From positions 27,854 to 91,853 of the forward strand of contig JAPULZ010000056.1 in assembly GCA_027294455.1 (NCBI GenBank): a stretch of 64,000 bases of DNA, given 5' to 3'. Below, in pieces: positions 24,114-56,974 of this stretch. This DNA comes from Gemmatimonadota bacterium. Lineage in GTDB: Bacteria; Gemmatimonadota; Gemmatimonadetes; Gemmatimonadales; GWC2-71-9. How positions within the stretch are numbered: position 1 is the first letter of the stretch; every line of letters starts with the position of its first letter. The notes under the pieces were generated by a model. That model saw only the letters and a program-made list of their open reading frames with translations, was not told the DNA's origin and searched no databases. Both the position numbers and the translations under genes were made by a program.

Positions 24114-24311
24114 CTATCCCCTACCCGGCGGGGGCGGGCCAAAGACGGGATCGGGCATGTTCATGCCCCCACCACCCCCCATGTCCATCATGGAGGGCAT
24201 GCCCTGACCCGCGAGAGCGGGCGGCGCGGCGAGCGAAACCATGACCGGAGCGGTGTAGACGGCCCCCGTCGCTAACTTCTTCAAGAACTCGCGCCGATCG
24301 TGGGATCTCAT
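24114..24311 (-). CDS. Small Tat-signal peptide/protein (65 aa) with a Met/Gly/Pro-rich mature region ending in GRG
   Basis: MRSHDRREFLKKLATGAVYTAPVMVSLAAPPALA carries the twin-arginine motif RREFLK, an h-region and an AxA site. The mature part is GQGMPSMMDMGGGGGMNMPDPVFGPPPPGRG. AGGTGA lies a few nt upstream of ATG 24311, which is 8 nt after the methyltransferase stop. Confidence 0.6.
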   Translation of the reverse strand: MRSHDRREFLKKLATGAVYTAPVMVSLAAPPALAGQGMPSMMDMGGGGGMNMPDPVFGPPPPGRG

Positions 24312-24318
24312 CACTCAC

Positions 24319-25479: not shown

Positions 25480-25757
25480 TGCAGCAGTCCCGCCCGGGCA
25501 AATTCGGAGACGACGCCCTCCACGTCCTGCTCGAGGGTATCGGCCGGCGCCGACCCGGTGAATGCCTCACGCACCTCCCCGGCGATCTCGCCCAGGGTGA
25601 GGCTGCCGCTGCAATGCGCCCAGACCAGGGAGGCCGTGAGGTTCAGCACGTGCATCTTGTTGTCACGGGGATCGAAGAGCACCCACTCCTCATCGAGCTG
25701 ACGAAACACGACGTCGCCCCGGGCTTTGGGGCGTTGCGGCATCTTGGGCGTCGCCAT
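25476..25757 (-). CDS. PqqD-family protein (RiPP recognition element-like)
   Basis: VVFRQLDEEWVLFDPRDNKMHVLNLTASLVWAHCSGSLTLGEIAGEV…DVEGVVSEFARAGLL matches the PqqD pattern. I start at ATG 25757; ATG 25742 is also possible. Confidence 0.8.
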   Translation of the reverse strand: MATPKMPQRPKARGDVVFRQLDEEWVLFDPRDNKMHVLNLTASLVWAHCSGSLTLGEIAGEVREAFTGSAPADTLEQDVEGVVSEFARAGLLQ

Positions 25758-25812
25758 CGTCGTAAGATGGGCACTCACGGATTGGGCGGCAACGATGACA
25801 ACCGGCCGGGCC

Positions 25813-26916
25813 TCACCGGCGGCGGAGCTTGCCGGCGACGCTCGACGCGTGCCGCCCCCAGGCATGCAGCCGCGAGCCGGCGTCGGGCCATCGCCAGGCG
25901 AGGTGCGAGCGTGGAGGCACCAGTACGTCGGCCAGGAGCTTCCAGAGCCCGCTCCAGCGGTCGATGACGCCCAAACGCCGGCGTATCCGCCCCGGGGTGA
26001 TCGTCACGGCCTCCTCCGACGGGGTGGCGAGGGCCAACCGCACGAGGCCGCGTAGGTCCGATGCACCGATCTGGCTCGCACGCCAGTCCCACTCCGGCTG
26101 GATGCCTGGGGTCTGCGGCAAGTCAAACTCCCGGGAGACGATTCCCCCGAGCACGCGAACGGCCCGCAGCGCTCCCACCTCCCGCGCCACGGCTTCCACC
26201 TTGGCGCCGGCGCCGGTCGAAAGCCGCTGCCACAGCAGGGTGAAATCGATGATGCCCTTGAGATGGAGCATGTCGTGATGTGCCACGTGATGGGCGAGCA
26301 ACACCAGGTGGCACTCGTCGCTCGGAGCGATGAGCGCCTCGCCGCCGAGTGAGTCCCACACGACCTTCGGTATGGCCACCGTCGCACGGGGCAGCAATCT
26401 GTCCAACGGCTCCACCGCCCAGTGAAGATCGACGGTCACCGTTTCGATGTCGGTGCCCCCGGCCTCCCGGTGCAAGACGCAGGCACCGCGCAGGTCGGGA
26501 GGGCCCGGTTGTTCGTCCTCGGGCGCCGGTCGATACCCCAGCGCGGCCAAGGCCGCCAGGGCGGCCTCGCGAGCCGGCGGCGTCACATGAACATCGATGT
26601 CCTGGAGGTCTCGGTCGCCCACCTGGTAGACCGGCCCGAGGAGCGCGATGCCCTTGTAAAAAAAATGCGGGACGTCGGCCTGTTGGAACGCCGCTCCCAG
26701 CTCGAGGGCTGCGTCCCGCAGGATCGCCGCTTCGAGCCCTCGGTAGACCCGCCGCTCACGTACCCCGTCCGCCTCGAGGTCGAGGCAGCGGGCGAGGTAT
26801 CCCTCGAACCCGAAGTCTCTGGCAAGCTCGAGCGCCCGGGTGGGTCCCTTGCGCCCGACCTCGGCGGCCACATCGTCCAACGCGGACAGCAGGGTAGCCG
26901 CGACCGGCTCGGTCAT
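25813..26916 (-). CDS. Uncharacterised nucleotidyltransferase family protein (NTP_transf_5-like)
   Basis: DIDVHVTPP…ALAALGY, VDLHWAV and LLAHHVAHHDMLHLKGIIDF are blocks typical of PF14907-type proteins. ATG 26916 overlaps the upstream stop (ATGA). Confidence 0.75.
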   Translation of the reverse strand: MTEPVAATLLSALDDVAAEVGRKGPTRALELARDFGFEGYLARCLDLEADGVRERRVYRGLEAAILRDAALELGAAFQQADVPHFFYKGIALLGPVYQVGDRDLQDIDVHVTPPAREAALAALAALGYRPAPEDEQPGPPDLRGACVLHREAGGTDIETVTVDLHWAVEPLDRLLPRATVAIPKVVWDSLGGEALIAPSDECHLVLLAHHVAHHDMLHLKGIIDFTLLWQRLSTGAGAKVEAVAREVGALRAVRVLGGIVSREFDLPQTPGIQPEWDWRASQIGASDLRGLVRLALATPSEEAVTITPGRIRRRLGVIDRWSGLWKLLADVLVPPRSHLAWRWPDAGSRLHAWGRHASSVAGKLRRR

Positions 26917-27776
26917 GAGGACGCCACTTCGGAAAGGACGCGGACGGCCTCGTCCGCCCCGCCGAACCGAACCTCGACGGCGCCCGCCTTGTTCATCAAA
27001 TCCGCGAGACGTGAAAACGCGTCGGCTTTCTCGAGGCCGGTCTCGAAGCAACTGTGTACCAGAAGGCTCAGTCCATCGGCGGAGCTCATCGCTTTGACGC
27101 TCAATCCCTCGCCGGCGACGAATCTCACAAGCGCCACTACCTTCACCGGGGCCGGCTCGGCCCATCCCCCGGCCTGCGCGGGATCGAACCACGCCTCCTC
27201 CGACGCAGCACCCCAAAACGCCGTACCCGCAGGATCCACACCGAACCGGCGGAGCAGATCCGGATCCGACTTGAACAGCCGCTTGAAGGGCGCGGCGATG
27301 CCGTCATCGCCGATCAGCACCAGATCGTCGCCGAACGCCGGCAACCCGCTGAGACTGCCATGGGTGGCGAGGCTCGATTTCCCGGCGCCCGAAGGTCCGA
27401 GGACGATCACCGCTCCGGCATCGGCCGCCCACCCCGAAGCGTGAAGTTGCACCGAGTTGGCGCAGCCTTCGAGAAATACCTCGGTGAGGCAGTACTCGCA
27501 GTCGTCAACGAACGCGTCGAATGTGGCACAGAAGACGGGTTCGGGCCGGGAGGGCGTCTTGATCGACCACCCCCCGTCGTTGCACTCCACCCGTAGCGTC
27601 ACGCCCTCGCCATCTCGTGGGCCCGCCGTCGAGACCACCGCGTAAGCCGGAAACATGCTGCGTACCGCTTCACGGGTCGCAGGATCCGGCACCTCCACTC
27701 GGTGGCGCACGCCCATGACGTCGAACTCGATCGCCGTTAAACCGTTGTTATTCAACATGTTAGGTAGCACGGGCAC
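26913..27776 (-). CDS. HPr(Ser) kinase C-terminal-domain-like P-loop protein
   Basis: VIVLGPSGAGKSSLATHG…FGDDLVLI parallels the HprK/P block G.SG.GKSE.AL.L…G..LV.DD.V. Confidence 0.75.
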   Translation of the reverse strand: MPVLPNMLNNNGLTAIEFDVMGVRHRVEVPDPATREAVRSMFPAYAVVSTAGPRDGEGVTLRVECNDGGWSIKTPSRPEPVFCATFDAFVDDCEYCLTEVFLEGCANSVQLHASGWAADAGAVIVLGPSGAGKSSLATHGSLSGLPAFGDDLVLIGDDGIAAPFKRLFKSDPDLLRRFGVDPAGTAFWGAASEEAWFDPAQAGGWAEPAPVKVVALVRFVAGEGLSVKAMSSADGLSLLVHSCFETGLEKADAFSRLADLMNKAGAVEVRFGGADEAVRVLSEVASS

Positions 27777-37710: not shown

Positions 37711-38493
37711 TCACCGCGCTCGGCGCAACCGAATGCTCCCGTTTACCGTACTCACGTCGAGGCGGGTGCCGCCCTCGCCGATCCGACCCTGGAGCGTCCG
37801 CCGGCTGAACCGGCCGCTCACGGTGATGGGAAGCGCGCTGTCGATGCTCCCGTTCACGGTGCTGGCGTGCAGGTCGACGTTGCTGTCCTCGGGCAAGTCG
37901 AGCGTGATGTTGCCATTGACCGTCTCAAACCGCACATCGCCCGACGTCGAACCGATCGACGCGCGAATAGACCCGTTGATGGTCGTGGCCACGGCCCGTT
38001 GCGTCGTCTTTACCTCGACGTCGCCGTTGACGGTGGCGGTCTCTACGTCGCTTGCGAGCCCGATCGCTTCGACGTCGCCGTTGACGGTGCGGCCCACGAA
38101 CCGCACACCGGCCGGCACGCTCACCGTGAAGTGCACGCGCGTGTCGTTGTTGCGCGTGTTCATACGGCCACCCGACCCATGCACGCACTCGTTCGGCCGT
38201 CCACTCGACGGGTACACCGCGCAGATGGTGATCCCGTCACCGTGTTCGACGACTACGATGTCGACCGCGTCCGGATCGCTCCGGCGGCCCCGCTTGATGG
38301 CCGTGACGACGACCTCGCTTCCTGACGTGAACGCGGCGACGACATCGCCGTTGACGCCCTTGATCTCGATTGCGTCTCCTTGCGCGATGCGACCCCGCCA
38401 TTCGAAGTCCTGCGCCGCCAGCTGGGTCGCGCCGATCGCTGCGGAAAACGCCAAGACCAGCGGCAGGCGCATGCACACTGGATGCTGCGTCAT
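37711..38493 (-). CDS. DUF4097-domain (putative beta-helical adhesin-like) protein
   Basis: VNGD/VNGS/VNGNI strands recur periodically (VNGDVVAAF, TVNGDVEV, TINGSIRA, TVNGNITL, STVNGSI). A signal peptide is present. I start at ATG 38493; 38472 is an alternative. Confidence 0.7.
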   Translation of the reverse strand: MTQHPVCMRLPLVLAFSAAIGATQLAAQDFEWRGRIAQGDAIEIKGVNGDVVAAFTSGSEVVVTAIKRGRRSDPDAVDIVVVEHGDGITICAVYPSSGRPNECVHGSGGRMNTRNNDTRVHFTVSVPAGVRFVGRTVNGDVEAIGLASDVETATVNGDVEVKTTQRAVATTINGSIRASIGSTSGDVRFETVNGNITLDLPEDSNVDLHASTVNGSIDSALPITVSGRFSRRTLQGRIGEGGTRLDVSTVNGSIRLRRAR

Positions 38494-38500
38494 GATTGCC

Positions 38501-39364
38501 TCATCGCAGACGACGGAGAAAAATGTCCCCGTCAAAAGTTTCCATTCGCAACACCGCCCCGCCATCACCCAACGTGAAGTTGAATCGATATCGCTGCGAC
38601 CCGCGAAGGATCACCGGGAAGCTCGTCTCGAACTCGCCCTCGAACGTCGCCACGCTCACGCTGGCGTTCACCCCGGCCGGAACCCAAACCGTCACGTCAC
38701 CGTCGTGCGTGCCGAAGCGGTACCGGCCGCCATCGTGAATCGGCCCCGAAAACGTCACGTCGCCGTCTACGGTGTTGGCCGTGATCTGCCGCGCGTCGAC
38801 GTTGTCCAGCTCGATGTCGCCGTCGATCGATTCCGCCGTCACTTCACCGGACACGTTGCGGATCCACACGTTGCCACCCGTGGAGGTGGCGTGGATCCGC
38901 CCACGCGCATCTTCGATACGAACGTCGTCATCCAGGGATTGCACGGAGACGAAGCCGGCTCCGCCACGCACAAGCACGGCGCCCTCCACTGTCTCTACCG
39001 ACACGTCGCCCGCGGTTCCGATCACGCTCACGGCGACTTCCACGCCACTGAGATCCAGGTCGAGGTAGGGCGGTACTGTGATCGCGAAATCGACATCCGC
39101 ATCGTCGTCGATATCGTCCTCGAATCCCCGCGCCACCACCCGTCGCACCCGCAACACCGCACCGGAGCGCTCCACGTCGATCCGGAAGCCCCGGGGACGC
39201 CGCACGATGATGCGTACGGCATCGCGCTGCCAGACCGTTACGCGAATCTCCCCGGTCTGGTTTCGCAGATCGAGGCGCATACCATCTTCGACGGCGATGG
39301 TCGTGTCTGTCGCTTGAAACAGGACCGAAGCGACGAGGGCTCCGGCCGCGAACGTGCTGATCAT
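38501..39364 (-). CDS. DUF4097-domain (putative beta-helical adhesin-like) protein
   Basis: Periodic G.V.V/DGDI/DGDV strand repeats (GGNVWI, IDGDIEL, TVDGDVTF, HDGDVTV, FDGDIFL). N-terminal signal or anchor. Confidence 0.7.
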   Translation of the reverse strand: MISTFAAGALVASVLFQATDTTIAVEDGMRLDLRNQTGEIRVTVWQRDAVRIIVRRPRGFRIDVERSGAVLRVRRVVARGFEDDIDDDADVDFAITVPPYLDLDLSGVEVAVSVIGTAGDVSVETVEGAVLVRGGAGFVSVQSLDDDVRIEDARGRIHATSTGGNVWIRNVSGEVTAESIDGDIELDNVDARQITANTVDGDVTFSGPIHDGGRYRFGTHDGDVTVWVPAGVNASVSVATFEGEFETSFPVILRGSQRYRFNFTLGDGGAVLRMETFDGDIFLRRLR

Positions 39365-39398
39365 GAAATACCTAAACTTTCTGGCCTGTCACTTCGCG

Positions 39399-40112
39399 CT
39401 ACAGCGCGCTGGAGATCGCGGTCACACCTTGCAGTAACGTCAACTTGTGTAGCATGGCCCGCTCGAGGTGCCCCCGCAGGTAGTCGCTCTCGGGATCGGC
39501 CGCTAACGCTCGCAGCGAACGCTCGATCGCCCGGTCGATGATCGCCAGGTTGTCTTCGACGATCCGGACGGTTGCCGGATCCAGGATTTCCCGCTCCCGC
39601 TCAAATACCGTCGTCAGGTCGGCCACCGCCTGTTCCAACCTGATGGCCCCGACCGACACGAACGACGCCTCGGCGACCGGCACGTCAGTAGCCGTGATGC
39701 CGTCACCGGCGATCGGCCCGTCGAGCGGCGATGCCGGGCCTCGCAACACCATTGCGCCACCTCCCGACAACAGCACCAGGGCGATGGCGGCGGCGAGGAG
39801 CTGCGGCACCGACACCGACAGCCGACCGGTGGACCACCACCGCCTGACGTGCAACATGGTGACCGCGTTCTCCGTGTCCGGCGCCCTGGCCCCTATTTGC
39901 TTGGCGATCCCCTCCCAAATCCGCTGCACCTGTGGCGGGACCTTGTCGTCCAGCGCCCGCGCCCGCATCACGACGCGACGAAGACCCTCGAGGGCTGCCG
40001 CCGATTCGGCGTCTTGGGCCAGACGCGCCTCCACGAGCGCCCGCTCGGCCGGTGTCATCTCGCCGTCGATGTAATCCGAGAGTCGATCCATCCACTTGTC
40101 GCTCATCGTCAC
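39399..40112 (-). CDS. Anti-sigma factor (zf-HC2-like N-terminus, single TM)
   Basis: LSDYIDGEMTPAERALVEARL is typical of anti-sigma N-domains. A central TM helix LLAAAIALVLLSGGGAMVL is present. The gene lies 2 nt downstream of the ECF sigma gene. Confidence 0.7.
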   Translation of the reverse strand: MTMSDKWMDRLSDYIDGEMTPAERALVEARLAQDAESAAALEGLRRVVMRARALDDKVPPQVQRIWEGIAKQIGARAPDTENAVTMLHVRRWWSTGRLSVSVPQLLAAAIALVLLSGGGAMVLRGPASPLDGPIAGDGITATDVPVAEASFVSVGAIRLEQAVADLTTVFEREREILDPATVRIVEDNLAIIDRAIERSLRALAADPESDYLRGHLERAMLHKLTLLQGVTAISSAL

Positions 40113-40114
40113 TC

Positions 40115-40690
40115 CTAGCGGTCGAGATGCTTGCGGAGGGTCATCCGCGCTCGGTGCAGTTGCGCTTTCGAGGTGCCAGCCGTCACACCGAGCATCTCGG
40201 CAATCTCATGGTGCTTGTATCCCTCGACATCGTGGAGCACGAACACGCTGCGCGCGCCGGGGGGAAGGTGTTCGATCGCTGCATCGACATCCATATCGAG
40301 TCCTTCCGGTTTCACCCGGGCCGACAGACGCTCGAGCGGTTCATCGGAATCTAGGTACCGCTCCCGCCGCACACCGCGTTCTTTCCGCGCGCCGAGGATT
40401 ACGTTGATGGCCACTCGATGCAGCCACGTGCCGAATGCCGCTTCTCCGCGAAACGTGCCGAGCTTTTCCCACGCGCGAACGAAGACGTCTTGCGTGAGCT
40501 CGTCGGCGTCGCCGGATCCCAGCATCCTCCGCGCGAGCCCATGAATGCGCGCGACATGCGTCCGATACAGCCGCTCGAACGCTTGCGAATCACCACTCGC
40601 CGCCAAGGTCACGTCGATCGCGTCCTGGTCCGCCGAGGCCGTCGTGGCTTCTCGTGGCAGTTCGGTCACCCTGGGGCCGTCGACTTCCAT
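40115..40690 (-). CDS. ECF-type RNA polymerase sigma factor
   Basis: Region 2 is FERLYRTHVARIHGLARRMLG…DADELTQDVFVRAWE. Region 4 is VFVLHDVEGYKHHEIAEMLGVTAGTSKAQLHRAR. Confidence 0.9.
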   Translation of the reverse strand: MEVDGPRVTELPREATTASADQDAIDVTLAASGDSQAFERLYRTHVARIHGLARRMLGSGDADELTQDVFVRAWEKLGTFRGEAAFGTWLHRVAINVILGARKERGVRRERYLDSDEPLERLSARVKPEGLDMDVDAAIEHLPPGARSVFVLHDVEGYKHHEIAEMLGVTAGTSKAQLHRARMTLRKHLDR

Positions 40691-46312: not shown

Positions 46313-46965
46313 CACAGTGCTCCTTCCGCAAATATGAGGTGGGCGTCGGCGGTCAACGCGGCTTGCAGCCGATGCTGGACGCCACGCGCTTCCAGTCCCT
46401 GTTCGATCAAATCGAGCTCGTCGATGCTCCGGTTGGACGCATACTGGCTGATCTGCACGAGAATCAGTTCCAGATCTTCGAACAGCTCGCGCAAGATCGG
46501 ATCTCGGGCGATGGGGGAGTCCATCATGAGGCGGGCCGTCGCAAGCAGGTCGCGCGCCCACGCCATCACTTCTGCGTCGGCCTGCCCGATCCTGGCCTCC
46601 GTCCTGAAGAGCGACAAGAACGCATCCGTACGCGCCAGGTAGTCGGCGGCGAAGACCCGGAACGCCAGGGGCGTCTCGTCGATTCCGTCTTCGTCCGCCG
46701 GCTCGGCGGCGGCGGTAGTGCTCGCGGTGTCCGACGCGCCGGGGGCCGTGACCCGTCCGAGGCCTACTCCCACCGCGAGCACCGCCGCGGCCACGAGGCC
46801 CCAAGCCCCCCAAGGTCGTGCTTGCCGTTCGAGGTCCCGCTCCCCACCGCGTTTCGCGCGCGCCGCGTCGATACGCGACCAGATTTCCTCCCGGGGCGTT
46901 TCGGGCGGATGACGATAATCCGCCGCCGTCTCCTTCAGAAATTCTTCAAACTGTTGGTCCGTCAT
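46312..46965 (-). CDS. Putative anti-sigma factor (single TM)
   Basis: ATG 46965 overlaps the sigma gene stop (ATGA). A short cytoplasmic N-domain is followed by the TM helix WGAWGLVAAAVLAVGVGLG and a periplasmic helical domain. Confidence 0.55.
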   Translation of the reverse strand: MTDQQFEEFLKETAADYRHPPETPREEIWSRIDAARAKRGGERDLERQARPWGAWGLVAAAVLAVGVGLGRVTAPGASDTASTTAAAEPADEDGIDETPLAFRVFAADYLARTDAFLSLFRTEARIGQADAEVMAWARDLLATARLMMDSPIARDPILRELFEDLELILVQISQYASNRSIDELDLIEQGLEARGVQHRLQAALTADAHLIFAEGAL

Positions 46966-47507
46966 GAAACCCACTCCTGTACAAACTCAGCCAGGGATTC
47001 CCGCAGCTTGGCCCGCGCCCTCGACAACTGCGCCTTCGAAGTCCCGATCTGTAACCCCAACGTCTCGGCGATCTCGCGATGCTTGAAACCCTCGACGTCG
47101 TGCATGACGAAGACCAACCTATACTTGTCGGGCAAGTCGTCGATGGCTTCGCGAAGCCGCTCCTTGAGGTCGGGCTCGGCCTGGCGCACCCGGTCCCCGA
47201 CCGTGCGCGCCTCGCCGAGATCGATCTCCCTCGTGCGAAATCGCTTGACCTTGCGAAGCGTGTTCAGCGCGACGGTCGTGCCGATGGAGTGGAGCCAGGT
47301 GCCAAATGCCGCCTCGCCACGGAAATCAACGATCCGATCGAACGCCCGGATGAACGTGTCCTGCGTGATGTCCTGGGCCAGGACGTCGTCCCCGGAGATC
47401 CGGTACGCCAGGCGATACACCCGATCGACATGGGTGTCATACAGCTCACGTTCTGCGACGGCATCCCCACTGCGGACCCGGGCGATCAAATCTCGCTCGT
47501 CCACCAC
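46962..47507 (-). CDS. ECF-type RNA polymerase sigma factor
   Basis: Region 2 is ERELYDTHVDRVYRLAYRISGDDVLAQDITQDTFIRAF. Region 4 is VFVMHDVEGFKHREIAETLGLQIGTSKAQLSRAR. Confidence 0.9.
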   Translation of the reverse strand: MVDERDLIARVRSGDAVAERELYDTHVDRVYRLAYRISGDDVLAQDITQDTFIRAFDRIVDFRGEAAFGTWLHSIGTTVALNTLRKVKRFRTREIDLGEARTVGDRVRQAEPDLKERLREAIDDLPDKYRLVFVMHDVEGFKHREIAETLGLQIGTSKAQLSRARAKLRESLAEFVQEWVS

Positions 47508-47602
47508 ACTCCAGGGCTATTGGAGGCTCAACGCGCGTTGGTCTGGATGTATGACACATGAAGGGGGGAGAGGGTTGCAAAGGGAGGGGAACTGCGATTC
47601 TA

Positions 47603-47732
47603 GAACCGCTCATTCTAGATTCTAGATTGGTGACTCTAGATTGCAGATTGGATTTTTTGATGGGGTGTGGCGCTGCAACTTCCAACCAATGGAATCAAAG
47701 ATCTCGAATCACCAATCTAGAATGAGCGGTTC
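47603..47732. repeat. Long-range inverted repeat (24-bp arms) in an AT-rich, TCTAGA-dense intergenic patch
   Basis: Arm 1 (47603-47633) is gaaccgctcattctaga[ttctaga]ttggtga. Arm 2 (47709-47732) is tcaccaatctagaatgagcggttc, the exact reverse complement apart from the 7-nt duplication. TCTAGA occurs at 47599, 47614, 47621, 47635 and 47716. Confidence 0.75.
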
Positions 47733-47734
47733 AC

Positions 47735-49510
47735 CTAATGCCCCGCCGCCCCTGCGTCGCTCTGCCGATAATCCGGCGCCCCTAGGCGATCCCCCGTGAC
47801 CGGGTCGATCATGATGGAATGAATGCTGCCCTGCCGGCCGCGCACCTGCACCACGTGGCCCATCGCCCGCAACTGCCCCACCGTCTCGGCCGAAACGCCT
47901 CCGGCTTCGATCCGCAGGTTGTCCGGCAACCATTGATGGTGCAGGCGCCTGGCGTCCACGGCTTCCTGGATCCCCATGTCGAACTCCATGACGTTGAGGG
48001 CCACTTGGAGAACGGTGTTGATGATCGTGCGCCCGCCGGGACTGCCTATGACGGCGACGAGTCGGCCGTCCCGCGCGAGGATCGTGGGTGTCATGCTCGA
48101 GAGCATGCGTTGCTCGGGACGGGCGAGGTTGGGCTCCGTCCCGATGAGCCCGCCCGACGTGGTGAGCCCGCGTTGGGGGTTGAAGTCACCCATCTCGTTA
48201 TTCAGGAGAAACCCCGCCCCCGGCACGACAATCCCCGAGCCGTACCCCTGCTCCAGGGTGTACGTCACCGACACTGCCATCCCGTCGGCATCGACCACGG
48301 AGTAGTGCGTGGTCTGGTCACTCTCGTGCGGAACGCTCACGTCCGCCGGATCCGAGTGGCCCGCCATGGCGGGATTGATGGATTGCCGCAGCTCGGCGGC
48401 GTATTCCTTGCTCGTCAAACGATCGACCGGGACCTCGACGAAGTCCTGGTCGGCGAGCAACAACGCCCGGTCCCGGTAGGCGCGGCGCATGGCTTCGGTG
48501 ACATGGTGAATGTAGGCAGCCGAGTTGTGGCCCATGGACCTGAGGTCATATCCCTCCAGGACGTTGAGCATCTGCACCAGCGCCGGTCCGCCGCTGCTCG
48601 GCGGGGGCATACTGATGATCTCGTAACCGCGAAACGTCCCCCGGATCGGCGTGCGCTCTATCGCTTCATATCGCGCCAGGTCTTCCTCGGTGATCAAGCC
48701 GCCGCCCCGACGCATCTCGGCGGCGAGCAACCGGGCGGTCTCCCCCCGGTAGAAACCCTTCCGACCCTCGCGCATGATGCGCTCCAAGGTGCGGGCCAGA
48801 TCGGGTTGGCGTAGCACCTCGCCGGGGAGATACTCCTCGCCGTCCCGCGTGAACGCATCGACCGTCGCCGGATACCGGGACAACCGCTGAACCACACCGC
48901 GGAGCGAGCGCGCCAGATTCCCGGTGAGCACGAACCCTTCCGCGGCCAGGTCGACCGCGGGCCCCACCAACCGCGCCCACGGCAACTTCCCGTAGCGCTC
49001 GTGTGCTTTCGCAAACCCGGCCACGGTGCCGGGAACACCCACCGCCAGATGGCTGTTGTGGTGCAGCGTCGACGAATAAGTGCCGTTTTCATCCAGAAAC
49101 ATGTCGGCGTTGGCCGCGAGGGGGGCCTTCTCGCGGAAGTCGATGGCGGTCGCCCTACCATCCGGCAACCGGACGACCATGAACCCTCCGCCTCCGATGT
49201 TTCCGGCGCCCGGATGTGTCACGGCAAGGGCGAAGCCGGTGGCGATGGCGGCGTCGATGGCATTGCCGCCGGCGCGCAGCACGTCCCGCCCCACTTGACT
49301 GGCCCGCATGTCCGCCGACACGACCATGCCGGCGGCGGCCCGTATGGGGGGTCGAGAAACGACCCGCTCCGCGGCCATGGGTGCCAGCGAGGCCGGTTGC
49401 GGCCCTTGGCACGCGACGACGAGCGTGACGACAACGAGGCAAACAAGACGCCGAAGCAAATTGGGTCTGACCATGAGACCGAAACCGTGGGTTCGAGATA
49501 GCAGAGTCAT
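47735..49510 (-). CDS. ggt: Gamma-glutamyltranspeptidase
   Basis: GGNAIDAA, the autoprocessing-site block SDQTTHYSVVD, and GSPGG…II motifs. A signal peptide is present. Confidence 0.95.
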   Translation of the reverse strand: MTLLSRTHGFGLMVRPNLLRRLVCLVVVTLVVACQGPQPASLAPMAAERVVSRPPIRAAAGMVVSADMRASQVGRDVLRAGGNAIDAAIATGFALAVTHPGAGNIGGGGFMVVRLPDGRATAIDFREKAPLAANADMFLDENGTYSSTLHHNSHLAVGVPGTVAGFAKAHERYGKLPWARLVGPAVDLAAEGFVLTGNLARSLRGVVQRLSRYPATVDAFTRDGEEYLPGEVLRQPDLARTLERIMREGRKGFYRGETARLLAAEMRRGGGLITEEDLARYEAIERTPIRGTFRGYEIISMPPPSSGGPALVQMLNVLEGYDLRSMGHNSAAYIHHVTEAMRRAYRDRALLLADQDFVEVPVDRLTSKEYAAELRQSINPAMAGHSDPADVSVPHESDQTTHYSVVDADGMAVSVTYTLEQGYGSGIVVPGAGFLLNNEMGDFNPQRGLTTSGGLIGTEPNLARPEQRMLSSMTPTILARDGRLVAVIGSPGGRTIINTVLQVALNVMEFDMGIQEAVDARRLHHQWLPDNLRIEAGGVSAETVGQLRAMGHVVQVRGRQGSIHSIMIDPVTGDRLGAPDYRQSDAGAAGH

Positions 49511-50307
49511 AACTGCTGAATCACACCGCGCACCAGGGCCTCCAGGTCACCCCGCACCTCGCGGCTGGCCGCGAGGACGTCGTCGTGACTGAGTGGGCCC
49601 GGCCCCATGCCCGCGACGACGTTGGAAACCGTCGAGATGCCGAGGACACGCATCCCATTGGCCCGGGCGGCGATGACTTCGGGGACCGTGGACATTCCCA
49701 CGGCGTCGGCACCCATCCGCTCGAGCATCCGGATTTCTGCCACCGTTTCATAGGCCGGCCCCAGCACCCCGGCATACACGCCCTCGTGGATGGTGATCCC
49801 CGCCGCGAGGGCCGTCTGCCGGGCGAGGGATCGCAACTCGCCGTCGTAGGGTTCGGACATGTCCGGGAAACGCTCCTCCACGCCGACGATGGCACCCTGA
49901 AGCGGGCTTCTCCACATCAGATTGATGTGGTCGGCAATCAACATCAAGACGGGCGGCGTAAACGTGCGACGGATCCCCCCGGCGGCGTTCGTGACGATCA
50001 CCGTCTTGGCACCGAGTGCCGCGAACGTGCGCACCGGCAGGATCACCGTCGCCGGATCGTGCCCCTCGTACAGATGGAATCGACCGCTCTGGAGCATCAC
50101 AGGCACACCACCGAGCCGGCCAAACACAAAGACGCCCTGGTGCCCAGCCACCCCGGGGTCGGGAAATCCGGGAACCTCGCCGTACGGAACCGTCACCGGT
50201 GACTCCAGCGCGTCGGCCAGCGCTCCGAGACCCGAGCCGAGCACGATGGCAATCTCGGGAACGTCGGGTCCGATCCGCGAGACCAGCGCTTGCGCCGCGG
50301 CGATCAC
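49507..50307 (-). CDS. punA: Purine nucleoside phosphorylase (PNP family 2, PunA-like)
   Basis: AIVLGSGLG, GH.G.FVFG.L.G..V…QGRFH.YEG, NAAGG and GMSTVPE motifs. GTG 50307 overlaps the nupC stop (GTGA) and gives a typical 266 aa. Confidence 0.85.
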   Translation of the reverse strand: MIAAAQALVSRIGPDVPEIAIVLGSGLGALADALESPVTVPYGEVPGFPDPGVAGHQGVFVFGRLGGVPVMLQSGRFHLYEGHDPATVILPVRTFAALGAKTVIVTNAAGGIRRTFTPPVLMLIADHINLMWRSPLQGAIVGVEERFPDMSEPYDGELRSLARQTALAAGITIHEGVYAGVLGPAYETVAEIRMLERMGADAVGMSTVPEVIAARANGMRVLGISTVSNVVAGMGPGPLSHDDVLAASREVRGDLEALVRGVIQQL

Positions 50308-51671
50308 AGCAACAGCCCGGCCAGACTCGCGGACATGAGCGCCGCGAGGTTGCCGCCGATCATTGCCTTCACCCCCAACCGCGCCAGATCCCCCCTTCGC
50401 TCTGGCGCGATTCCACCGATGCCGCCAATCTGAATGGCGATCGACGGAATGTTCGCGAAGCCGAGCAGCGCGTACGTGGCGATGACGGCTCCACGGGGTG
50501 AAAGGCTCCCGCCCACCTCCATCATTCCCGAGAGCTGGAGATACGCCACGAATTCGGTGGCCACGACCTTCACGCCCACGAGACTGCCCACGATCGTCGC
50601 ATCTCCCCAAGACAACCCCATCAACCAGATCACGGGAGCGAGGATCCATCCAAAGATTGATTGCAGTGTCAGGTCGTCCGCACCAACCAAACCGCCGGCC
50701 GCACCGACCACGAAGTTCAGCAACGCCAGCAATGCCACGAACGCGAGGAGCATGGCACCCACGTTGAGCGCAAGCTGCATGCCCTGCGATGCTCCCGTGG
50801 CGGCCGCGTCGATCACGTTGGCTTCGTTACGTTCGATGTCGCCCGCCAGACCGCCGCTGGTCTCGGGCTCGCCGGTCTCGGGAACCAGCAACTTCGAAAT
50901 GACCAGCGCAGCCGGGGCATTCATGACACTTGCCGTGAGCAGATGGCCGGCGATGTCCGGAAAGTACGGCGACAGCATGCCGACATAGGCCGCCATCACG
51001 CCGCCGGCAATGGTGGCGAACCCTCCGACCATGACGGTATTCAGCTCGGAGAGCGTGAGCCGGCCGATGAAGGGTTTGATCATGAGCGGCGCCTCAGTCA
51101 TCCCGACGAAGATGTTGCCGGCGACGCACAACGTCTCCGCACCGGACGTGCGCAACGTGCGGCGCATCGCCCAGGCGATGCCCCCCACGATCCGCTGCAG
51201 GATGCCGAGATGGTACAACACGGACGTCAGGGCCGAGAAGAAAATGATGGTGGGCAACACGAAGAAGGCGAAATACGCCCCGGTGTTGGCCCACGCGGCG
51301 CCGGCGTCTATCAGGGCCATGTCCGCAGGTTGGCCTAGCGACTGGCCCACCGGGACGTTGTTCTTCACGAGATTGCCGAAGATGAACCGCGCGCCGACTT
51401 CCGTGAATCCCAGCAATTGGGCGAACACGCGGTTCGCCCCTTGGAACATGACCCGCCCGAACGCGGTCTTGAGCACCACGAAGCCGAAGATCGCCTGCAT
51501 CGTGACCCCGAATCCCACCAGGCGCCACGGTACCCTGGCCCGGTCGGACGACAGGAACCAGGCGATGCCGATCATGGTCGCCATCCCGACGATGCCCATC
51601 AAGCGTTGCGCCGCGGGCACGCTCCAAGTCGTCGGGTCGGCGACCAGCTGCTCCAACGCCAGCGTGGTCAT
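50304..51671 (-). CDS. nupC: NupC-family concentrative nucleoside transporter
   Basis: A polytopic protein with the conserved blocks GTSFVFG-like ARFIFGNL, ESLNVAGNIFVG-like ETLCVAGNIFVGMTEAPL and GFANxxSIGI-like GFANIPSIAIQIGG. Confidence 0.9.
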   Translation of the reverse strand: MTTLALEQLVADPTTWSVPAAQRLMGIVGMATMIGIAWFLSSDRARVPWRLVGFGVTMQAIFGFVVLKTAFGRVMFQGANRVFAQLLGFTEVGARFIFGNLVKNNVPVGQSLGQPADMALIDAGAAWANTGAYFAFFVLPTIIFFSALTSVLYHLGILQRIVGGIAWAMRRTLRTSGAETLCVAGNIFVGMTEAPLMIKPFIGRLTLSELNTVMVGGFATIAGGVMAAYVGMLSPYFPDIAGHLLTASVMNAPAALVISKLLVPETGEPETSGGLAGDIERNEANVIDAAATGASQGMQLALNVGAMLLAFVALLALLNFVVGAAGGLVGADDLTLQSIFGWILAPVIWLMGLSWGDATIVGSLVGVKVVATEFVAYLQLSGMMEVGGSLSPRGAVIATYALLGFANIPSIAIQIGGIGGIAPERRGDLARLGVKAMIGGNLAALMSASLAGLLL

Positions 51672-52693
51672 GTGATCTCCTGAAGCTCTCGGGTCACGCG
51701 TGCCATGAGGGCAGTTTTCTCATCATCCGGCAAGAACGCGCTTGCGAATCCGTTCAGAATCAACCGGTCCAACTCGCTGCGTGAAAAACCCAGTGCAGTG
51801 TGCGCCAGCCAGTATTCATCGGTGAGCGACACACCGTCCATCAGCCGGCTGTCGGTGTTCAAGGTGACGACGCATCCGCGGTCGAAATACCGACGAAGGG
51901 GGTGCGAGGCGACGTCGGTGACGGTCCGGGTATGCAGGTTGGACGACAGGCACATTTCCAGCGGAATCCCCTCCTCGCACACCTGCCGCTCGAGCGTCGC
52001 GTCCTCATGAATCCGCGTGCCGTGCCCGATGCGTTGGGCTCCGCAATCGTGCAGCGCTTGGCGCACCGAGTCCGGGCCGTCGCCCTCCCCCGCATGACAT
52101 GTGCAGTGCACTCCGTGTCGAGCGGCGTGGGCAAAGGCGGCCGCGTGGTCCCGGGCCGGATGATGGCGCTCCGCCCCGCCCAGGTCGAATGCGACCGAAC
52201 CCTCCTCCCGATAATCCACGGCCAGATGGGCGAGGTCGCTGGACACCGAGGGCGCCATGGTCCGCAGCGCTGTGACGATGAGTGTCGCCCTTGTGCCGGT
52301 CTCGGCCTCGGCGCGGCGGAGTCCGACGAGCACGGCCTCCATCACCTGAGACAGCCGCAGCGAGGCCGTATGCAGTGCCGGACAGAAGCGAACCTCGACG
52401 TACCGAACGTTCTCCAGGGATGCATCGTGGACGAACTCGTAGGAGATCCGCTCGAGCGCTACATCGGTCTGCATGAGCGCGACCGTGTAGGTGTAGCGAT
52501 CGAGATACTCCTCCAGGTTTTTGGCGTTGCGGACGAACATGGCATCCGCCAGCGATCGCGGGTCCCCGCCGGGTAACCTGACGCCCGCTGTCTGCGCGAG
52601 CTCGATCATTGTTTGAGGCCGCAGACACCCGTCGAGGTGCACGTGGAGCTCCGCCTTCGGCAAACGCCGGATCACGTCCTTGGTCAGCGTCAC
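51668..52693 (-). CDS. add: Adenosine deaminase
   Basis: LPKAELHVHLDG, HAGE and TLNTDSRL (catalytic Asp) motifs. The start overlaps the upstream small ORF's stop. Confidence 0.9.
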   Translation of the reverse strand: MTLTKDVIRRLPKAELHVHLDGCLRPQTMIELAQTAGVRLPGGDPRSLADAMFVRNAKNLEEYLDRYTYTVALMQTDVALERISYEFVHDASLENVRYVEVRFCPALHTASLRLSQVMEAVLVGLRRAEAETGTRATLIVTALRTMAPSVSSDLAHLAVDYREEGSVAFDLGGAERHHPARDHAAAFAHAARHGVHCTCHAGEGDGPDSVRQALHDCGAQRIGHGTRIHEDATLERQVCEEGIPLEMCLSSNLHTRTVTDVASHPLRRYFDRGCVVTLNTDSRLMDGVSLTDEYWLAHTALGFSRSELDRLILNGFASAFLPDDEKTALMARVTRELQEIT

Positions 52694-52911
52694 CGCCGCT
52701 GCTCCGGTCGGCGGGCGCTCTTGATCACTCGGATGATGGCCCCCTCCGCCACGATGGACGCGGGGTCGAGTTCGCGGCCCACGCCATCGGTCGCGTAGGC
52801 GGCGCCTGCGTCCAGTGCTGCACCGAGCGCCACGTCAAACGATTGGACGGCCTGACGCACCGACACGCCGGGTGAGACCACTAACGGCCTTTCATCAATG
52901 AAGACCTTCAA
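52690..52911 (-). CDS. Small hypothetical protein (about 73 aa), possibly with a beta-grasp-like fold
   Basis: The frame is open between deoC and add, and its stop overlaps the add start codon by 4 nt. The only plausible start is TTG 52911 (KVFIDERPLVVSPGVSVRQAV…AEGAIIRV). There are no Cys residues and no recognised family. Confidence 0.35.
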   Translation of the reverse strand: MKVFIDERPLVVSPGVSVRQAVQSFDVALGAALDAGAAYATDGVGRELDPASIVAEGAIIRVIKSARRPEQRR

Positions 52912-53563
52912 GACCCTCCAGGATGGACACACCGGACGATGTGCCGATTCGGCTCGCACCGGCCGTGATCATGCGCAGCGCGGTGGCGCCATCACGAATG
53001 CCGCCCGAAGCCTTGACACCCATCGCGTCTCCCACGACGGTGCGCATCAACCGGACCGCATCGACGGTGGCACCACCCGCAGAATGAAAGCCCGTCGACG
53101 TCTTGACGAACCGCGCCCCCGACTCCCGCGCCACCACCGACCCCTGGATGATCTCCACCGGCAGCAGGGCCGCCGTTTCCAAAATGACCTTGACCGGCCG
53201 CCCCGAGGCCGCCTGCACAACCGCCGTCATGTCGTCCTCGACGTAGGTCCACGCGCCGTCCTTCATGGCACCAATGGATGCGACCATGTCCAGTTCATCG
53301 GCGCCGGCCTCCACCAGCCTGGAGGCTTCGAAGGCCTTCGCCGCCGACGGCATCGCGCCCAACGGGAAACCCACCACTGCGGCGATTTTCACCTCGCTCC
53401 CGCGCAGGCGGGAAACGCAACGACCGACCCACATCCCGTTGACGCACACCGCCGCGAAGCGGTGGCGCCGCGCTTCGGTGCACAGGCGATCGATTTCGCC
53501 GCAGGTCGCGTCGGCCCGCAGCAGCGTGTGATCCACATACGATGCCATGCGAGAGGGGGTCAC
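52895..53563 (-). CDS. deoC: Deoxyribose-phosphate aldolase
   Basis: VDHTLL, AAVCVN, VVGFPLG, VKVILET and FVKTSTGF (Schiff-base Lys) motifs. Confidence 0.9.
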   Translation of the reverse strand: MTPSRMASYVDHTLLRADATCGEIDRLCTEARRHRFAAVCVNGMWVGRCVSRLRGSEVKIAAVVGFPLGAMPSAAKAFEASRLVEAGADELDMVASIGAMKDGAWTYVEDDMTAVVQAASGRPVKVILETAALLPVEIIQGSVVARESGARFVKTSTGFHSAGGATVDAVRLMRTVVGDAMGVKASGGIRDGATALRMITAGASRIGTSSGVSILEGLEGLH

Positions 53564-53835
53564 CCCTCGATATCCACCTGGTCGATGATGCCGACGATCA
53601 CTACCTGGACCGGGATCTTCTCATCGTCGAAGATCTTGCGGGCCGAACTGCCCTCCTGCACCACGAGGACGCGGTCTCCCACCCCCGCGGACACCACATC
53701 GAGGGCAATGACCTCCATGGATCCGTCGGATGCCCCGTCGAGCCCGAGGCGCTGCACCAACAGGAGCTTCTTCCCTGCGAGACGTGCGTTCTTGTGCGTG
53801 GAGACCACGTCGCCGACAACTTCAGCGAGATACAT
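53560..53835 (-). CDS. EutN/CcmL-family microcompartment vertex protein (BMC-P)
   Basis: MYLAEVVGDVVSTHKN..L.GKKLLLVQ…VIALDVVSAGVGDRVLVVQEGSSAR…PVQVVIVGIIDQV aligns along its whole length with E. coli EutN as I recall it (MKLAVVTGQIVCTV…LLMVE…AIDNIGAGTGEWVLLVSGSSAR…PVDLCVIGIVDEV). Confidence 0.85.
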   Translation of the reverse strand: MYLAEVVGDVVSTHKNARLAGKKLLLVQRLGLDGASDGSMEVIALDVVSAGVGDRVLVVQEGSSARKIFDDEKIPVQVVIVGIIDQVDIEG

Positions 53836-53859
53836 GGGTGATCCACCGGCGATTGTGGT

Positions 53860-54138
53860 TCATCGGGGGCGATCCGCCATGTCGATCCGGTCGACCTTGC
53901 CCACGATGCCCGCGTCGACGGCCGCGAACGTGTCCCACAGGGTGAGGGACGCTTCCCGGGCGGTGATGTAGTAGCACAACTCCCCCGGACCGAGTCCGAT
54001 GGGATCCACCGCGACGATCGGGCCACCACGGTCGTGACGCAACGCGTCCACCGGCTGGATCCATTGCAGCGACTGCCCCCGGAGCGTGTCCTGTTTGACC
54101 GTCGCCACCACCCGGCCCACGACCCGAGCGAGAAACAC
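53860..54138 (-). CDS. EutN/CcmL-family microcompartment vertex protein (BMC-P), divergent paralog
   Basis: MFLARVVGRVVATVKQDTLRGQSL.WIQPVD…IVAVDPIGLGPGE…AVDAGIVGKVDRI has the same fold signature. The GSSAR block is replaced. Confidence 0.8.
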   Translation of the reverse strand: MFLARVVGRVVATVKQDTLRGQSLQWIQPVDALRHDRGGPIVAVDPIGLGPGELCYYITAREASLTLWDTFAAVDAGIVGKVDRIDMADRPR

Positions 54139-54139
54139 G

Positions 54140-54895
54140 TCAAGACCTCCACGGTTGATGGGTCGTGAAAACCTGGGGTTGCCGTCGCGCCGCGGCCAGC
54201 AGGTCAGGCTTGGTGAACAGCCTGATCAAGACGACCCCGGCGACGAATCCGCCCACGTGGGCCATGAAGGCCACCCCCCCTGAGGACTGCAAGGCGGCTC
54301 CCGCCAATTGCAGCACCGCCCAATAGAGCAGCATGAAGTACGCGGGCAGCGAGAGCGTGGTGATGAAGAACCCCAGAACCACCAACGTGTGCACCCGCAC
54401 CCTGGGATAGAGAACCAAGTAGGCGCCCATGATGCCGCTGATGGCGCCTGACGCCCCGACCATCGGCACGGGCGAGGACGGCTCCGCGAATACGTGGGCC
54501 AGCGCCGCGAGGACACCGCATGCCAGGTAGAACACGACGAATCGCCCGTGGCCCATGGCGTCCTCGATGTTGTTGCCGAACACCCAGAAGAACCACATGT
54601 TGCCCAGGAGATGGAACCAGCCGCCGTGGAGGAACACCGAGGACACCAGCGTATGCCAGGCGCCCCCGATGGCGCCGGCGCAGATCTGCACCGGCCCCCG
54701 CGGCGTGAGGACCGGCTCGCTGGGATTGCCAAATAGGCGGGCCGGGATCGCTCCCAGATCGCAGATCGACTGGCCGAGCCGCGGCTCGGCTCCGCCGCTC
54801 TGGAATACCAGCCAGACGAGGGAGGTGAGGACGATGATAGCCACCGTCACGAACGGCGTGAGGACGGTCGGATTGTCGTCTTTGTAGGGGAACAC
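54140..54895 (-). CDS. Rhomboid-family intramembrane serine protease
   Basis: Six TM helices. HGGWFHLLGNM, the catalytic GASGAISG and AHVGG motifs. Confidence 0.85.
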   Translation of the reverse strand: MFPYKDDNPTVLTPFVTVAIIVLTSLVWLVFQSGGAEPRLGQSICDLGAIPARLFGNPSEPVLTPRGPVQICAGAIGGAWHTLVSSVFLHGGWFHLLGNMWFFWVFGNNIEDAMGHGRFVVFYLACGVLAALAHVFAEPSSPVPMVGASGAISGIMGAYLVLYPRVRVHTLVVLGFFITTLSLPAYFMLLYWAVLQLAGAALQSSGGVAFMAHVGGFVAGVVLIRLFTKPDLLAAARRQPQVFTTHQPWRS

Positions 54896-55069
54896 CCGGG
54901 GAACCTACGCGGGCTGTAAATGCGAGTCAATCATGCCGTTGACGGCCCTCACCCCGTGAAAAACGGCAAGAACTCTGTCACTTTGGCAGTATTTTTCGGT
55001 ATGGCGCTTGCAATTGCGACTCCTGAGGTATTCTGCGCATCCAACCCTATTCGTGAAGGAGCCGGGCTG

Positions 55070-56974
55070 ATGTCACAAAAAGTGATCGGAATCGATCTCG
55101 GGACCACCAATTCTGTAGTCGCCGTCATGGAGGGTGGCGATCCGGTCGTGATCCCCAATTCCGAGGGAGGGCGCACCACGCCCTCGGTGGTGGCTTTTAC
55201 GAAGGACGGCGAACGTCTGGTGGGCCAGGTCGCCAAGCGGCAGGCCGTGACCAACCCGACCAACACCGTCTTTTCGATCAAGCGGTTCATGGGCCGCCGG
55301 ATGAACGAGGTCAAGGAAGAGGCGGCCCGGGTGCCGTACTCCGTGGCGTCGGGACCGCACGACCTGGCTGTCGTGGACATCCAAGGCAAGAAATACACCC
55401 CGCCCGAAATCTCGGCCATGGTGCTGCAAAAAATGCGGCAGACGGCCGAGGACTACCTCGGGCACTCCGTGGACAAAGCGGTCGTGACGGTTCCGGCATA
55501 CTTCAACGATTCGCAACGCCAGGCCACCAAGGACGCAGGCAAGATTGCCGGGCTCGACGTGCTCCGTATCATCAACGAGCCCACCGCCGCGGCGCTGGCC
55601 TACGGCATGGAAAAGAAGAAGGACGAGAAGATTGCCGTCTTCGACCTCGGCGGCGGCACGTACGATATCTCGGTCCTCGAGCTGGCCGAAGGCGTGTTCG
55701 AGGTCAAGAGCACCAACGGCGATACGCACCTCGGTGGCGACGATTTTGACCATAGGATCATCGACTGGTTGGTGGACGAATTCAAAAAGGACCAAGGGAT
55801 CGATCTCTCGAAGGATCCGATGGCCCTGCAGCGGCTCAAAGAGGCCGCCGAGAAGGCGAAAATGGAGCTGTCCACGACCCAGCAGACTGAAATCAATCTG
55901 CCGTTCGTCACCGCGGACCAGTCCGGACCGAAGCACCTCAGCATGACGTTGACGCGCGCGAAGTTCGAGCAGTTGGTCGACGACCTGATCCAGCGCACGA
56001 TTCCGCCCATGAAGCAAGCGCTGAAGGACGCGAACCTAGACCCATCGGCCCTCGACGAGGTCATCCTGGTCGGAGGATCCACACGCATTCCCAAGATCCA
56101 GGAGATCGTCAAGGAATTCTTCGGCCAGGAGCCGAACAAGGGCGTGAACCCCGACGAGGTCGTGGGCATCGGCGCGGCGATCCAGGGCGGCGTGTTGGCC
56201 GGGGACGTGAAGGACGTGTTGTTGCTCGACGTGACGCCCCTGTCGCTCGGGATCGAGACGCTCGGCGGAGTCACCACCGTACTGATATCGCGCAACACCA
56301 CCATCCCCACCAAGAAGGATGAGATCTTCTCCACGGCGGAGACCAATCAAACCACAGTGGAGATTCATGTGCTCCAGGGCGAACGGGAGATGGCCGTGGA
56401 CAATCGAACGATTGGGCGATTCCAGCTCACAGGCATCCCGCCGGCTCCTCGGGGAATTCCGCAAGTTGAAGTCATCTTCGACATCGACGCCAACGGGATC
56501 CTGCACGTCTCGGCCAAAGACAAAGCGACCGGCAAGGAGCAAAAGATCCGCATCGAAGCGTCGAGCGGGCTGTCGGACGACGAGATTGAGAACATGGTGA
56601 AGAACGCCGAATCCCACGCGGAGGAAGACAAGAAACGCCGCGAATCGATCGAGCAGCGCAACCGCCTCGATGCCATGGTGTATGAAGTCGAGAAGAACAG
56701 CCAGGAATGGGCGGATCGGCTCGATGATGCCACCAAGGAGCGTTTGAGCAGCTCCGTCGAGGCGGCCAAGCAGGCGCTTCGATCGGGCGAAGAGGCCGGC
56801 ATCGAGAAAGCCCTCGGGGATCTCTCCCAGGCCTACTCCGCGGCCGGTGCGTCACTCCATCAGGCCGAAGCCGGCACGCCGGAAGGCGAGGAAGCCGCGG
56901 CGGAAGGCGAGGGGGAGGCGAAAGAAGAAGACGTGGTCGAGGCCGACTACGAGATCGTCGACGACTCGAAATAG
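55070..56974 (+). CDS. dnaK: Molecular chaperone DnaK (Hsp70)
   Basis: [18 protein letters not shown]-like DLGGGTYD and [12 protein letters not shown] start at ATG 55070, with GAAGGAG 8 nt upstream. Confidence 0.97.

Follow-up and report, generated by a model that had tools for sequence, protein, structure and literature searches.

The window analysed here, a 64,000-nucleotide stretch of a Gemmatimonadota genome (contig JAPULZ010000056.1 of assembly GCA_027294455.1), carries on its minus strand two adjacent genes for microcompartment vertex proteins, hereafter PB and PA, followed directly by deoC, the gene for deoxyribose-phosphate aldolase (DERA). PB (53860-54138) encodes 92 aa from a GTG start and PA (53560-53835) encodes 91 aa. 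An earlier note on this DNA had aligned the two open reading frames (ORFs) end to end with the EutN/CcmL family of pentamers (BMC-P), and the family profile agrees: PA matches PF03319 with 91.1 bits (E 6.7e-26) and PB with 69.7 bits (E 3.1e-19), against a gathering score of 25 bits, and each match covers profile positions 1-83 of 83. The description of one protein as near-canonical and the other as divergent also stands, with the GSSAR block retained in PA and AREAS aligned at the same place in PB. The AlphaFold2 single-chain model of PB has a predicted local distance difference test score (pLDDT) of 85, and the 46 best matches that Foldseek returns from the PDB are without exception BMC-P structures (GrpN, CcmL, EutN, the Haliangium ochraceum protein (HO) and CsoS4), with best template-modelling (TM) scores of 0.75-0.85. 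Superposed on the GrpN, CcmL, EutN and H. ochraceum BMC-P subunits, the model gives a TM score of ~0.8. PA shares ~40% identity with GrpN (4i7a) across its full length.

The pair is tightly packed between its neighbours. Upstream on the same strand lies a gene for a rhomboid-family protease (54140-54895, PF01694, E 6e-34), whose stop codon is separated from the PB start by 1 nt and whose 3′ end contains the Shine-Dalgarno GGAGG of PB. PB and PA are 24 nt apart. The stop codon of PA overlaps the GTG start of deoC (52895-53563, minus strand), which encodes a 222-aa protein scoring 245.8 bits against TIGR00126, with a cut-off of 117.3. This overlap, at 53560-53563, had been reported as ATGA; the coupling is real and its letters in the window are GTGA, while ATGA occurs at the same place in a relative (L062, GCA_039590315.1). 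No connection of rhomboid proteases with microcompartments is known to us.

The shell hexamer (BMC-H, PF00936) was sought across the 64 kb in several ways. A tblastn search with five BMC-H seeds gave no significant match, and hmmsearch --max, run with profiles of BMC-H and BMC-P on every ORF of 40 aa or more in the six frames, returned the two BMC-P proteins and no BMC-H. A Pfam scan of about 50 larger ORFs found no PF00936, no aldehyde dehydrogenase (PF00171), no PduL/Pta and no RpiB, and tblastn with EutE and RpiB found no match. These hidden Markov model (HMM), Pfam and tblastn scans bear out the claim that BMC-H, BMC-T, aldehyde dehydrogenase and phosphotransacylase genes are missing from the 64 kb. 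One weak BMC-H match, at 21877-22089 (E 0.08), falls inside a pyridine-nucleotide-disulphide oxidoreductase gene and was discarded.

A conserved module in Gemmatimonadota

The protein collection contains about 600 relatives of PA, mostly from Gemmatimonadota; those that carry names belong to this phylum. Loci were recovered from a one-genome-per-species scan, a scan of Joint Genome Institute (JGI) metagenomes and exact-protein look-ups. In every Gemmatimonadota locus recovered, from about 21 distinct lineages, PB, PA and deoC are adjacent, and the rhomboid gene lies upstream of them wherever the contig reaches far enough. One of these modules lies on the closed 5.47-Mb contig ERZ25039539:contig_11120. 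On this contig, from the European Nucleotide Archive, dnaK is called as two HSP70 fragments of 334 and 323 aa (L064:6341-8301), probably through a frameshift assembly error, so gene calls on this long-read genome are to be taken with caution.

The next-nearest homologues of PA and PB, 40-56% identical, belong to Acidobacteriota and a few other phyla. There they lie in compact clusters of BMC-H and three pentamer genes, P1, P2 and P3, of which roughly 80 loci were recovered. One contig of a Terriglobia metagenome-assembled genome (CAVXCR010000048.1, L033:4465-10837) has two such H-P1-P2-P3 clusters in tandem, ~4.9 kb apart.

A compact SPU-type (sugar-phosphate-utilising) main locus could lie just outside the window, given that the source contig has 104,288 bases, of which 64 kb are in the window and ~40 kb remain. 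This is quite improbable. The window extends 53.5 kb from the pair on one side and ~10 kb on the other, all of it housekeeping sequence (dnaK, htrA, cox, ffh, trmD and others), and in none of the relatives, those on contigs of 137 kb to 5.5 Mb included, does a gene for BMC-H, aldehyde dehydrogenase or RpiB lie within 10 kb of the module in either direction.

Pentamer types and catalogued microcompartments

The pair was typed with a neighbour-joining tree built from 142 BMC-P sequences of the recovered loci, together with clade consensus sequences. PB clusters with P2, the middle pentamer gene of the H-P1-P2-P3 loci, and the two have the REAS signature in common, so what had been described as a lost GSSAR block is a trait of the clade rather than a peculiarity of this locus. 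PA shares the signature AG.GDRVLVVQG (AG.GDRVLVVQGSSAR) with the P3 genes of the triplets and occupies the same position after P2. PB is thus a divergent BMC-P of P2 type and PA a near-canonical one of P3 type. The missing member is the canonical P1-type pentamer, which in the tree falls together with those pentamers that are the only ones in other locus types.

Several known systems resemble the locus in part. Among microcompartment types, the closest is the fragmented type FRAG8 (Sutter 2021, Nat Commun 12:3809, Supplementary Data 2), which is described there from 7 loci, mostly in Gemmatimonadetes. As catalogued, a pfam01791 aldolase is present in almost all FRAG8 loci, RpiB and aldehyde dehydrogenase only in some, and the shell genes, a triplet of BMC-P genes (clades green, grey and orange) plus one BMC-H, are dispersed over several genomic sites. 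The window locus has a Gemmatimonadetes host, DeoC (pfam01791) beside the shell genes, BMC-P genes that type as putative triplet members, and no RpiB or aldehyde dehydrogenase nearby. It differs in showing two of the three pentamers, the P2-like and the P3-like one, and no BMC-H; the canonical third pentamer is in neither the window nor any flank. Orthology between this locus and the published FRAG8 loci is presumed from this description. The same survey states that the grey clade and the orange one are invariably found together and are two of the three triplet members; by this co-occurrence pattern and by gene order, rather than by placement in the published tree, PA and PB would correspond to the grey and orange clades.

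In the sense of Axen 2014, a satellite locus holds contiguous shell genes of only PF03319 or only PF00936, and the adjacent PA and PB, with no PF00936 in 64 kb, make this a candidate satellite. An SPU main locus combines DeoC, RpiB (pfam02502), aldehyde dehydrogenase and BMC-H; the window and the related loci have DeoC only. As in the window, a DeoC-type aldolase is the signature enzyme of SPU loci as described by Axen 2014 and Sutter 2021. The chemistry presumed for them is the cleavage of deoxyribose-5-phosphate, which yields glyceraldehyde-3-phosphate along with acetaldehyde, and they are presumed to serve the catabolism of what nucleic-acid breakdown leaves, a role that would also suit the window module. 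Unlike the window and the surroundings of its relatives' modules, SPU main loci have BMC-H, RpiB and aldehyde dehydrogenase beside DeoC.

The P2 and P3 genes of the acidobacterial (ACI) loci are the nearest homologues outside Gemmatimonadota, at the 40-56% identity given above, and match PB and PA in gene order and in both signatures. Unlike the window, ACI loci keep BMC-H and all three pentamers together and carry a class II (pfam00596) aldolase, not DeoC. The type I satellite locus of H. ochraceum has two triplet-type BMC-P genes and an aldolase gene remote from BMC-H, as here. It differs in that its aldolase is usually pfam00596, its host belongs to Myxococcota, its main locus is known and its shell has been solved (PDB 5V74). 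In some genomes of the HO type, a pfam01791 enzyme is reported to be extended at its N terminus by sequence that resembles an encapsulation peptide (Sutter 2021). Classical deo operons share with the window deoC accompanied by a nucleoside phosphorylase, a deaminase and NupC, that is, a cytosolic path from nucleoside uptake to deoxyribose-phosphate cleavage; unlike the window, they have no microcompartment shell genes.

The satellite status proposed in the earlier note, with an SPU-like locus elsewhere in the genome, is therefore the favoured reading, as suggested by the P2/P3 typing, the FRAG8 match and the co-occurrence of the grey and orange clades. The novelty that the note saw in an orphan pair is not supported, as the arrangement had already been catalogued as FRAG8. 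A literature search for orphan or shell-independent BMC-P proteins and for Gemmatimonadota microcompartments found nothing beyond Axen 2014 and Sutter 2021; Krupovic and Koonin 2017 treat the OB-fold origin only. Two attempts to reach a Gemmatimonadota BMC-H or third pentamer led elsewhere. All proteins returned by a search with Hoch_5814, the main-locus pentamer of H. ochraceum, were its close relatives (76-100% identical), and those few that carry names are from Haliangium, Kofleriaceae and other Myxococcota. One candidate cluster proved to be from Myxococcales, and cluster look-ups gave no UniProt accession tied to the published FRAG8 genomes.

DeoC of the relatives resembles a cargo enzyme

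DeoC has 222 aa in the window, but 265-375 aa in every module lineage that does not belong to the window's clade. Among the 120 nearest DeoC homologues, 115 are longer (234-375 aa, with extra N-terminal sequence; 109 of them above 270 aa) and 61-68% identical to the window protein. The other five, which are clusters, have 218-222 aa and at least 80% identity, and constitute the window's clade.

The extension has a recurrent design. Of the full-length homologues, 89 are extended by 40 aa or more; most begin with an amphipathic helix such as MNxRELDELAxAVAExL, examples being MNERELDELARAVAEKL and MSLDLDALAQRIAGELA, and an A/P/G/R-rich linker follows. The median hydrophobic moment of the helix is 0.61, versus 0.47 for shuffled sequences, and the encapsulation peptides of PduP, PduD, EutC and EutE give 0.43-0.76. 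The AlphaFold2 model of one relative (P0275) comprises a helix at residues 3-16, a disordered segment at 21-70, a confident TIM barrel at 76-288 and two C-terminal helices. Helix, flexible linker and barrel together resemble a microcompartment cargo enzyme, and this predicted architecture is the strongest evidence in this analysis that the module belongs to a real shell-forming system. The helix would then act as a shell-targeting element. Encapsulation peptides studied so far bind hexamer tiles, and the helix of the relatives' DeoC may do the same. Together with the adjacency of PB, PA and deoC in about 21 lineages, the presence of the peptide-like helix in nearly all relatives strongly supports the functional link to DERA that had been proposed from the overlapping codons.

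Other features set these enzymes apart. A C-terminal tail of the form EC[LI]G.GP..L.ELLADPERHE..C..G.C...Y is present in most relatives (for instance L055:10273-11235, L059:10362-11372 and P0249-P0363), and a conserved RDC cysteine is found in the barrel of 113 of the 120 homologues. Counting both tail and RDC, some four cysteines are conserved, and they may form a metal or redox site. A WRMP[VI] motif occurs in many of the linkers.

A deletion in deoC of the window's sub-lineage

The window and L062 have in common an in-frame deletion of ~270 nt in deoC that removes the helix and the linker and spares the start codon overlapping the PA stop. In the window DeoC only 5 residues precede the conserved core, and there is no extension that could serve as an encapsulation peptide. 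The Cys-containing C-terminal tail and the RDC cysteine are also lost in both genomes. Identity between the DeoC core of this clade and the extended DeoCs is 56-66%, as against 54-82% within the extended group, and the window PA is 66-84% identical to the PA of those lineages; in the window and L062 the core of DeoC has diverged more than PA and PB. The clade is further marked by a D48S substitution in PA, with S48 found in P0001-P0009 only. A replacement of deoC by an unrelated housekeeping gene was considered and rejected: the nearest relatives outside the clade are the extension-bearing Gemmatimonadota DeoCs, the overlap of the deoC start with the PA stop is kept, and the deletion boundaries are common to the window and L062.

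The operon context changed as well. In the window clade, deoC is followed on the same strand by a small conserved ORF and by add, nupC and the gene for purine nucleoside phosphorylase (PNP), which in three other lineages (L055, L056 and L009) lie on the opposite strand or are absent. The small ORF of the window (52690-52911, ~63-73 aa) has no Pfam or NCBIfam match. It probably starts at the TTG at 52911, after a GGAGG, and overlaps the 3′ end of deoC; add, adenosine deaminase, occupies 51668-52693 (PF00962, E 1.9e-97), the nupC-type concentrative nucleoside transporter 50304-51671 (PF07662, PF01773, PF07670) and PNP 49507-50307 (PF01048, E 1.3e-54), all on the minus strand. With 4-nt overlaps at the small ORF/add, add/nupC and nupC/PNP junctions, deoC, add, nupC and PNP form one translationally coupled run.

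That the pair is the decaying relic of a lost microcompartment is hardly credible, even if dismantling is hinted at by a DeoC that in this clade lacks both peptide and tail. Within the peptide-less clade, in comparison with L062, the ratio of nonsynonymous to synonymous substitution rates (dN/dS) is 0.12 for PA and 0.15 for PB, at dS of 0.4-0.55, and across the phylum it is 0.07-0.25. Both proteins contain long, nearly invariant stretches, both ORFs are intact in every lineage, and the Shine-Dalgarno sites and the stop/start coupling are kept. On the dN/dS values, pseudogenisation of either gene was rejected: PA and PB are functional genes under purifying selection, not relics.

Interpretation

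Taken together, we regard PB and PA as functional vertex pentamers of a fragmented, SPU-related Gemmatimonadota microcompartment of the FRAG8 type, with the other shell genes elsewhere in the genome, and give this a probability of about 0.62. On this reading the two proteins would be specialised paralogs of a three-member pentamer set, and the facet hexamer BMC-H would be encoded at other genomic sites, as would the third, canonical pentamer and any aldehyde dehydrogenase. The ancestral module would have consisted of the rhomboid gene, PB, PA and a deoC whose product carried an N-terminal amphipathic encapsulation peptide on a flexible linker, so that DERA could cleave deoxyribose-5-phosphate within the shell and free acetaldehyde in a confined space. 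In the window's sub-lineage, a single in-frame deletion would have taken peptide and linker, the Cys-containing tail would have been lost too, and deoC would have become the first gene of the coupled nucleoside-catabolism run. These losses, with the new operon context, indicate that DERA is probably no longer targeted by a peptide here, while both pentamer genes are still under selection.

A number of points weigh against this interpretation. None of BMC-H, a third BMC-P, aldehyde dehydrogenase or RpiB occurs in the 64-kb window, nor near the module in the ~21 Gemmatimonadota lineages, in flanks of up to 10 kb per side as the contigs permit. A BMC-H gene in the same genome is expected by analogy with the FRAG8 loci of the literature, 7 in all as described, and a shell in this organism, like a present role of PA and PB at its vertices, would depend on that analogy. 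In the neighbour-joining tree the Gemmatimonadota PA sits near the base of P1 plus P3 and not strictly within P3. The helix of DeoC is assigned as a putative encapsulation peptide by resemblance and structure prediction. Finally, the window DeoC has no targeting peptide, so that the only direct sign of encapsulation is absent from the genome under study.

The same observations feed the alternative that BMC-H is missing from these Gemmatimonadota, or from the peptide-less sub-lineage at the least, and that PA and PB function with no shell of hexamers around them. The proteins could then form a DERA-associated scaffold, a small cage made of pentamers only, or an OB-fold (oligonucleotide/oligosaccharide-binding) oligomer with another function in nucleoside or deoxyribose catabolism. 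The absence of BMC-H from the window and from the flanks of the module counts in its favour; the peptide has been deleted, yet both pentamer genes remain under purifying selection and coupled to deoC, and the clade-specific D48S in PA coincides with the loss. Cages of CcmL pentamers form in vitro (PDB 7wkc; PMC8812686), but required templating by a nanoparticle (PMC8812686). Against a shell-independent role, the folds of PF03319 and PF00936 are, by the description in Sutter 2021, found in microcompartments only, paralogs of the P2 and P3 type adjoin BMC-H and P1 in the roughly 80 loci of other phyla, BMC-H is reported in FRAG8 genomes of the same phylum in that survey, and DeoC of the relatives bears the encapsulation-peptide-like helix. 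A main shell locus elsewhere in this genome is presumed; the shell-independent alternative is weakened, the loss of the DeoC peptide in this lineage keeps it alive, and we consider it unlikely. Somewhat less likely again is its narrower form, in which PA and PB of the window's sub-lineage dispense with hexamers and either assemble from pentamers only or partner DERA or the adjacent rhomboid protease. If true, a role without hexamers would be the first natural shell-independent one for BMC-P proteins.

For the preferred reading, that of vertex pentamers of a FRAG8-type shell, the locus as found is one more instance of a catalogued fragmented microcompartment and adds little alone. What is new is the peptide-like extension on DeoC of the relatives and its loss in the window's clade. 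An N-terminal peptide on the FRAG8 DeoC does not figure in the description of the type consulted (Sutter 2021); it is seen in the window's relatives and lost in the window's DeoC. For the fragmented loci as a group, that survey reports encapsulation-peptide HMM searches without hits. The helix offers a FRAG-type organelle a concrete cargo, and with it a testable function in the catabolism of deoxyribose and DNA detritus. The sub-lineage without the peptide is a real curiosity, if a modest one: a clade that keeps both pentamers under selection after losing the peptide provides a comparative handle on the presence of three pentamer paralogs where 12 pentamers suffice to cap a shell.

Other features of the window

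The coupled run ends with a gene for gamma-glutamyltranspeptidase (GGT; 47735-49510, minus strand, PF01019, E 5.6e-169), the last gene of the tight same-strand series, which overlaps PNP by 4 nt and is probably not part of the function of the run. The true start of PNP is the GTG at 50307, which overlaps the nupC stop as GTGA and yields ~266 aa, in line with the 265 aa of the L062 orthologue; the mechanically called ORF (49507-50649, minus strand, 380 aa) is over-extended. The product of the small ORF begins MKVFIDERPLVVSPGV. The ORF is annotated as a gene in three genomes (L001, L002 and L062), lies beside add in two more by tblastn (L003 and L005), and has an unannotated 83-aa gene at its position in L056. 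No phosphopentomutase gene was seen in the window. A promoter and terminator consensus scan of 47300-55200 found no promoter-like sites and no convincing internal terminators, and was uninformative.

The rest of the window is given over to housekeeping and aerobic respiration (dnaK, htrA, cox, ffh, rpsP, trmD, uvrA and others). A cN-II-type 5′-nucleotidase gene (PF05761, 43268-44737, plus strand) lies ~6 kb from the PB-PA-deoC module. In four relatives (L055-L058, for instance L055:14715-19311) a 5′-nucleotidase of this type stands beside a large Metallophos/5_nucleotid_C protein, adjoining add, nupC and PNP. These neighbours suggest a wider neighbourhood for the salvage of nucleotides and DNA detritus.

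Two further groups of genes lie farther away. A possible cluster for a ribosomally synthesised and post-translationally modified peptide (RiPP) occupies 24114-27216 on the minus strand, with genes for an NTP_transf_5 'uncharacterised nucleotidyltransferase' (25813-27216), a PqqD-family protein (25476-25865) and a protein with a PRMT_C-like domain (24319-25479), and a 66-aa ORF (24114-24314). At 37711-40690, also on the minus strand, an extracytoplasmic function (ECF) sigma factor, a zf-HC2 anti-sigma factor and two DUF4097 'toastrack' genes stand in a row, and a second ECF sigma factor is encoded at 46962-47507.

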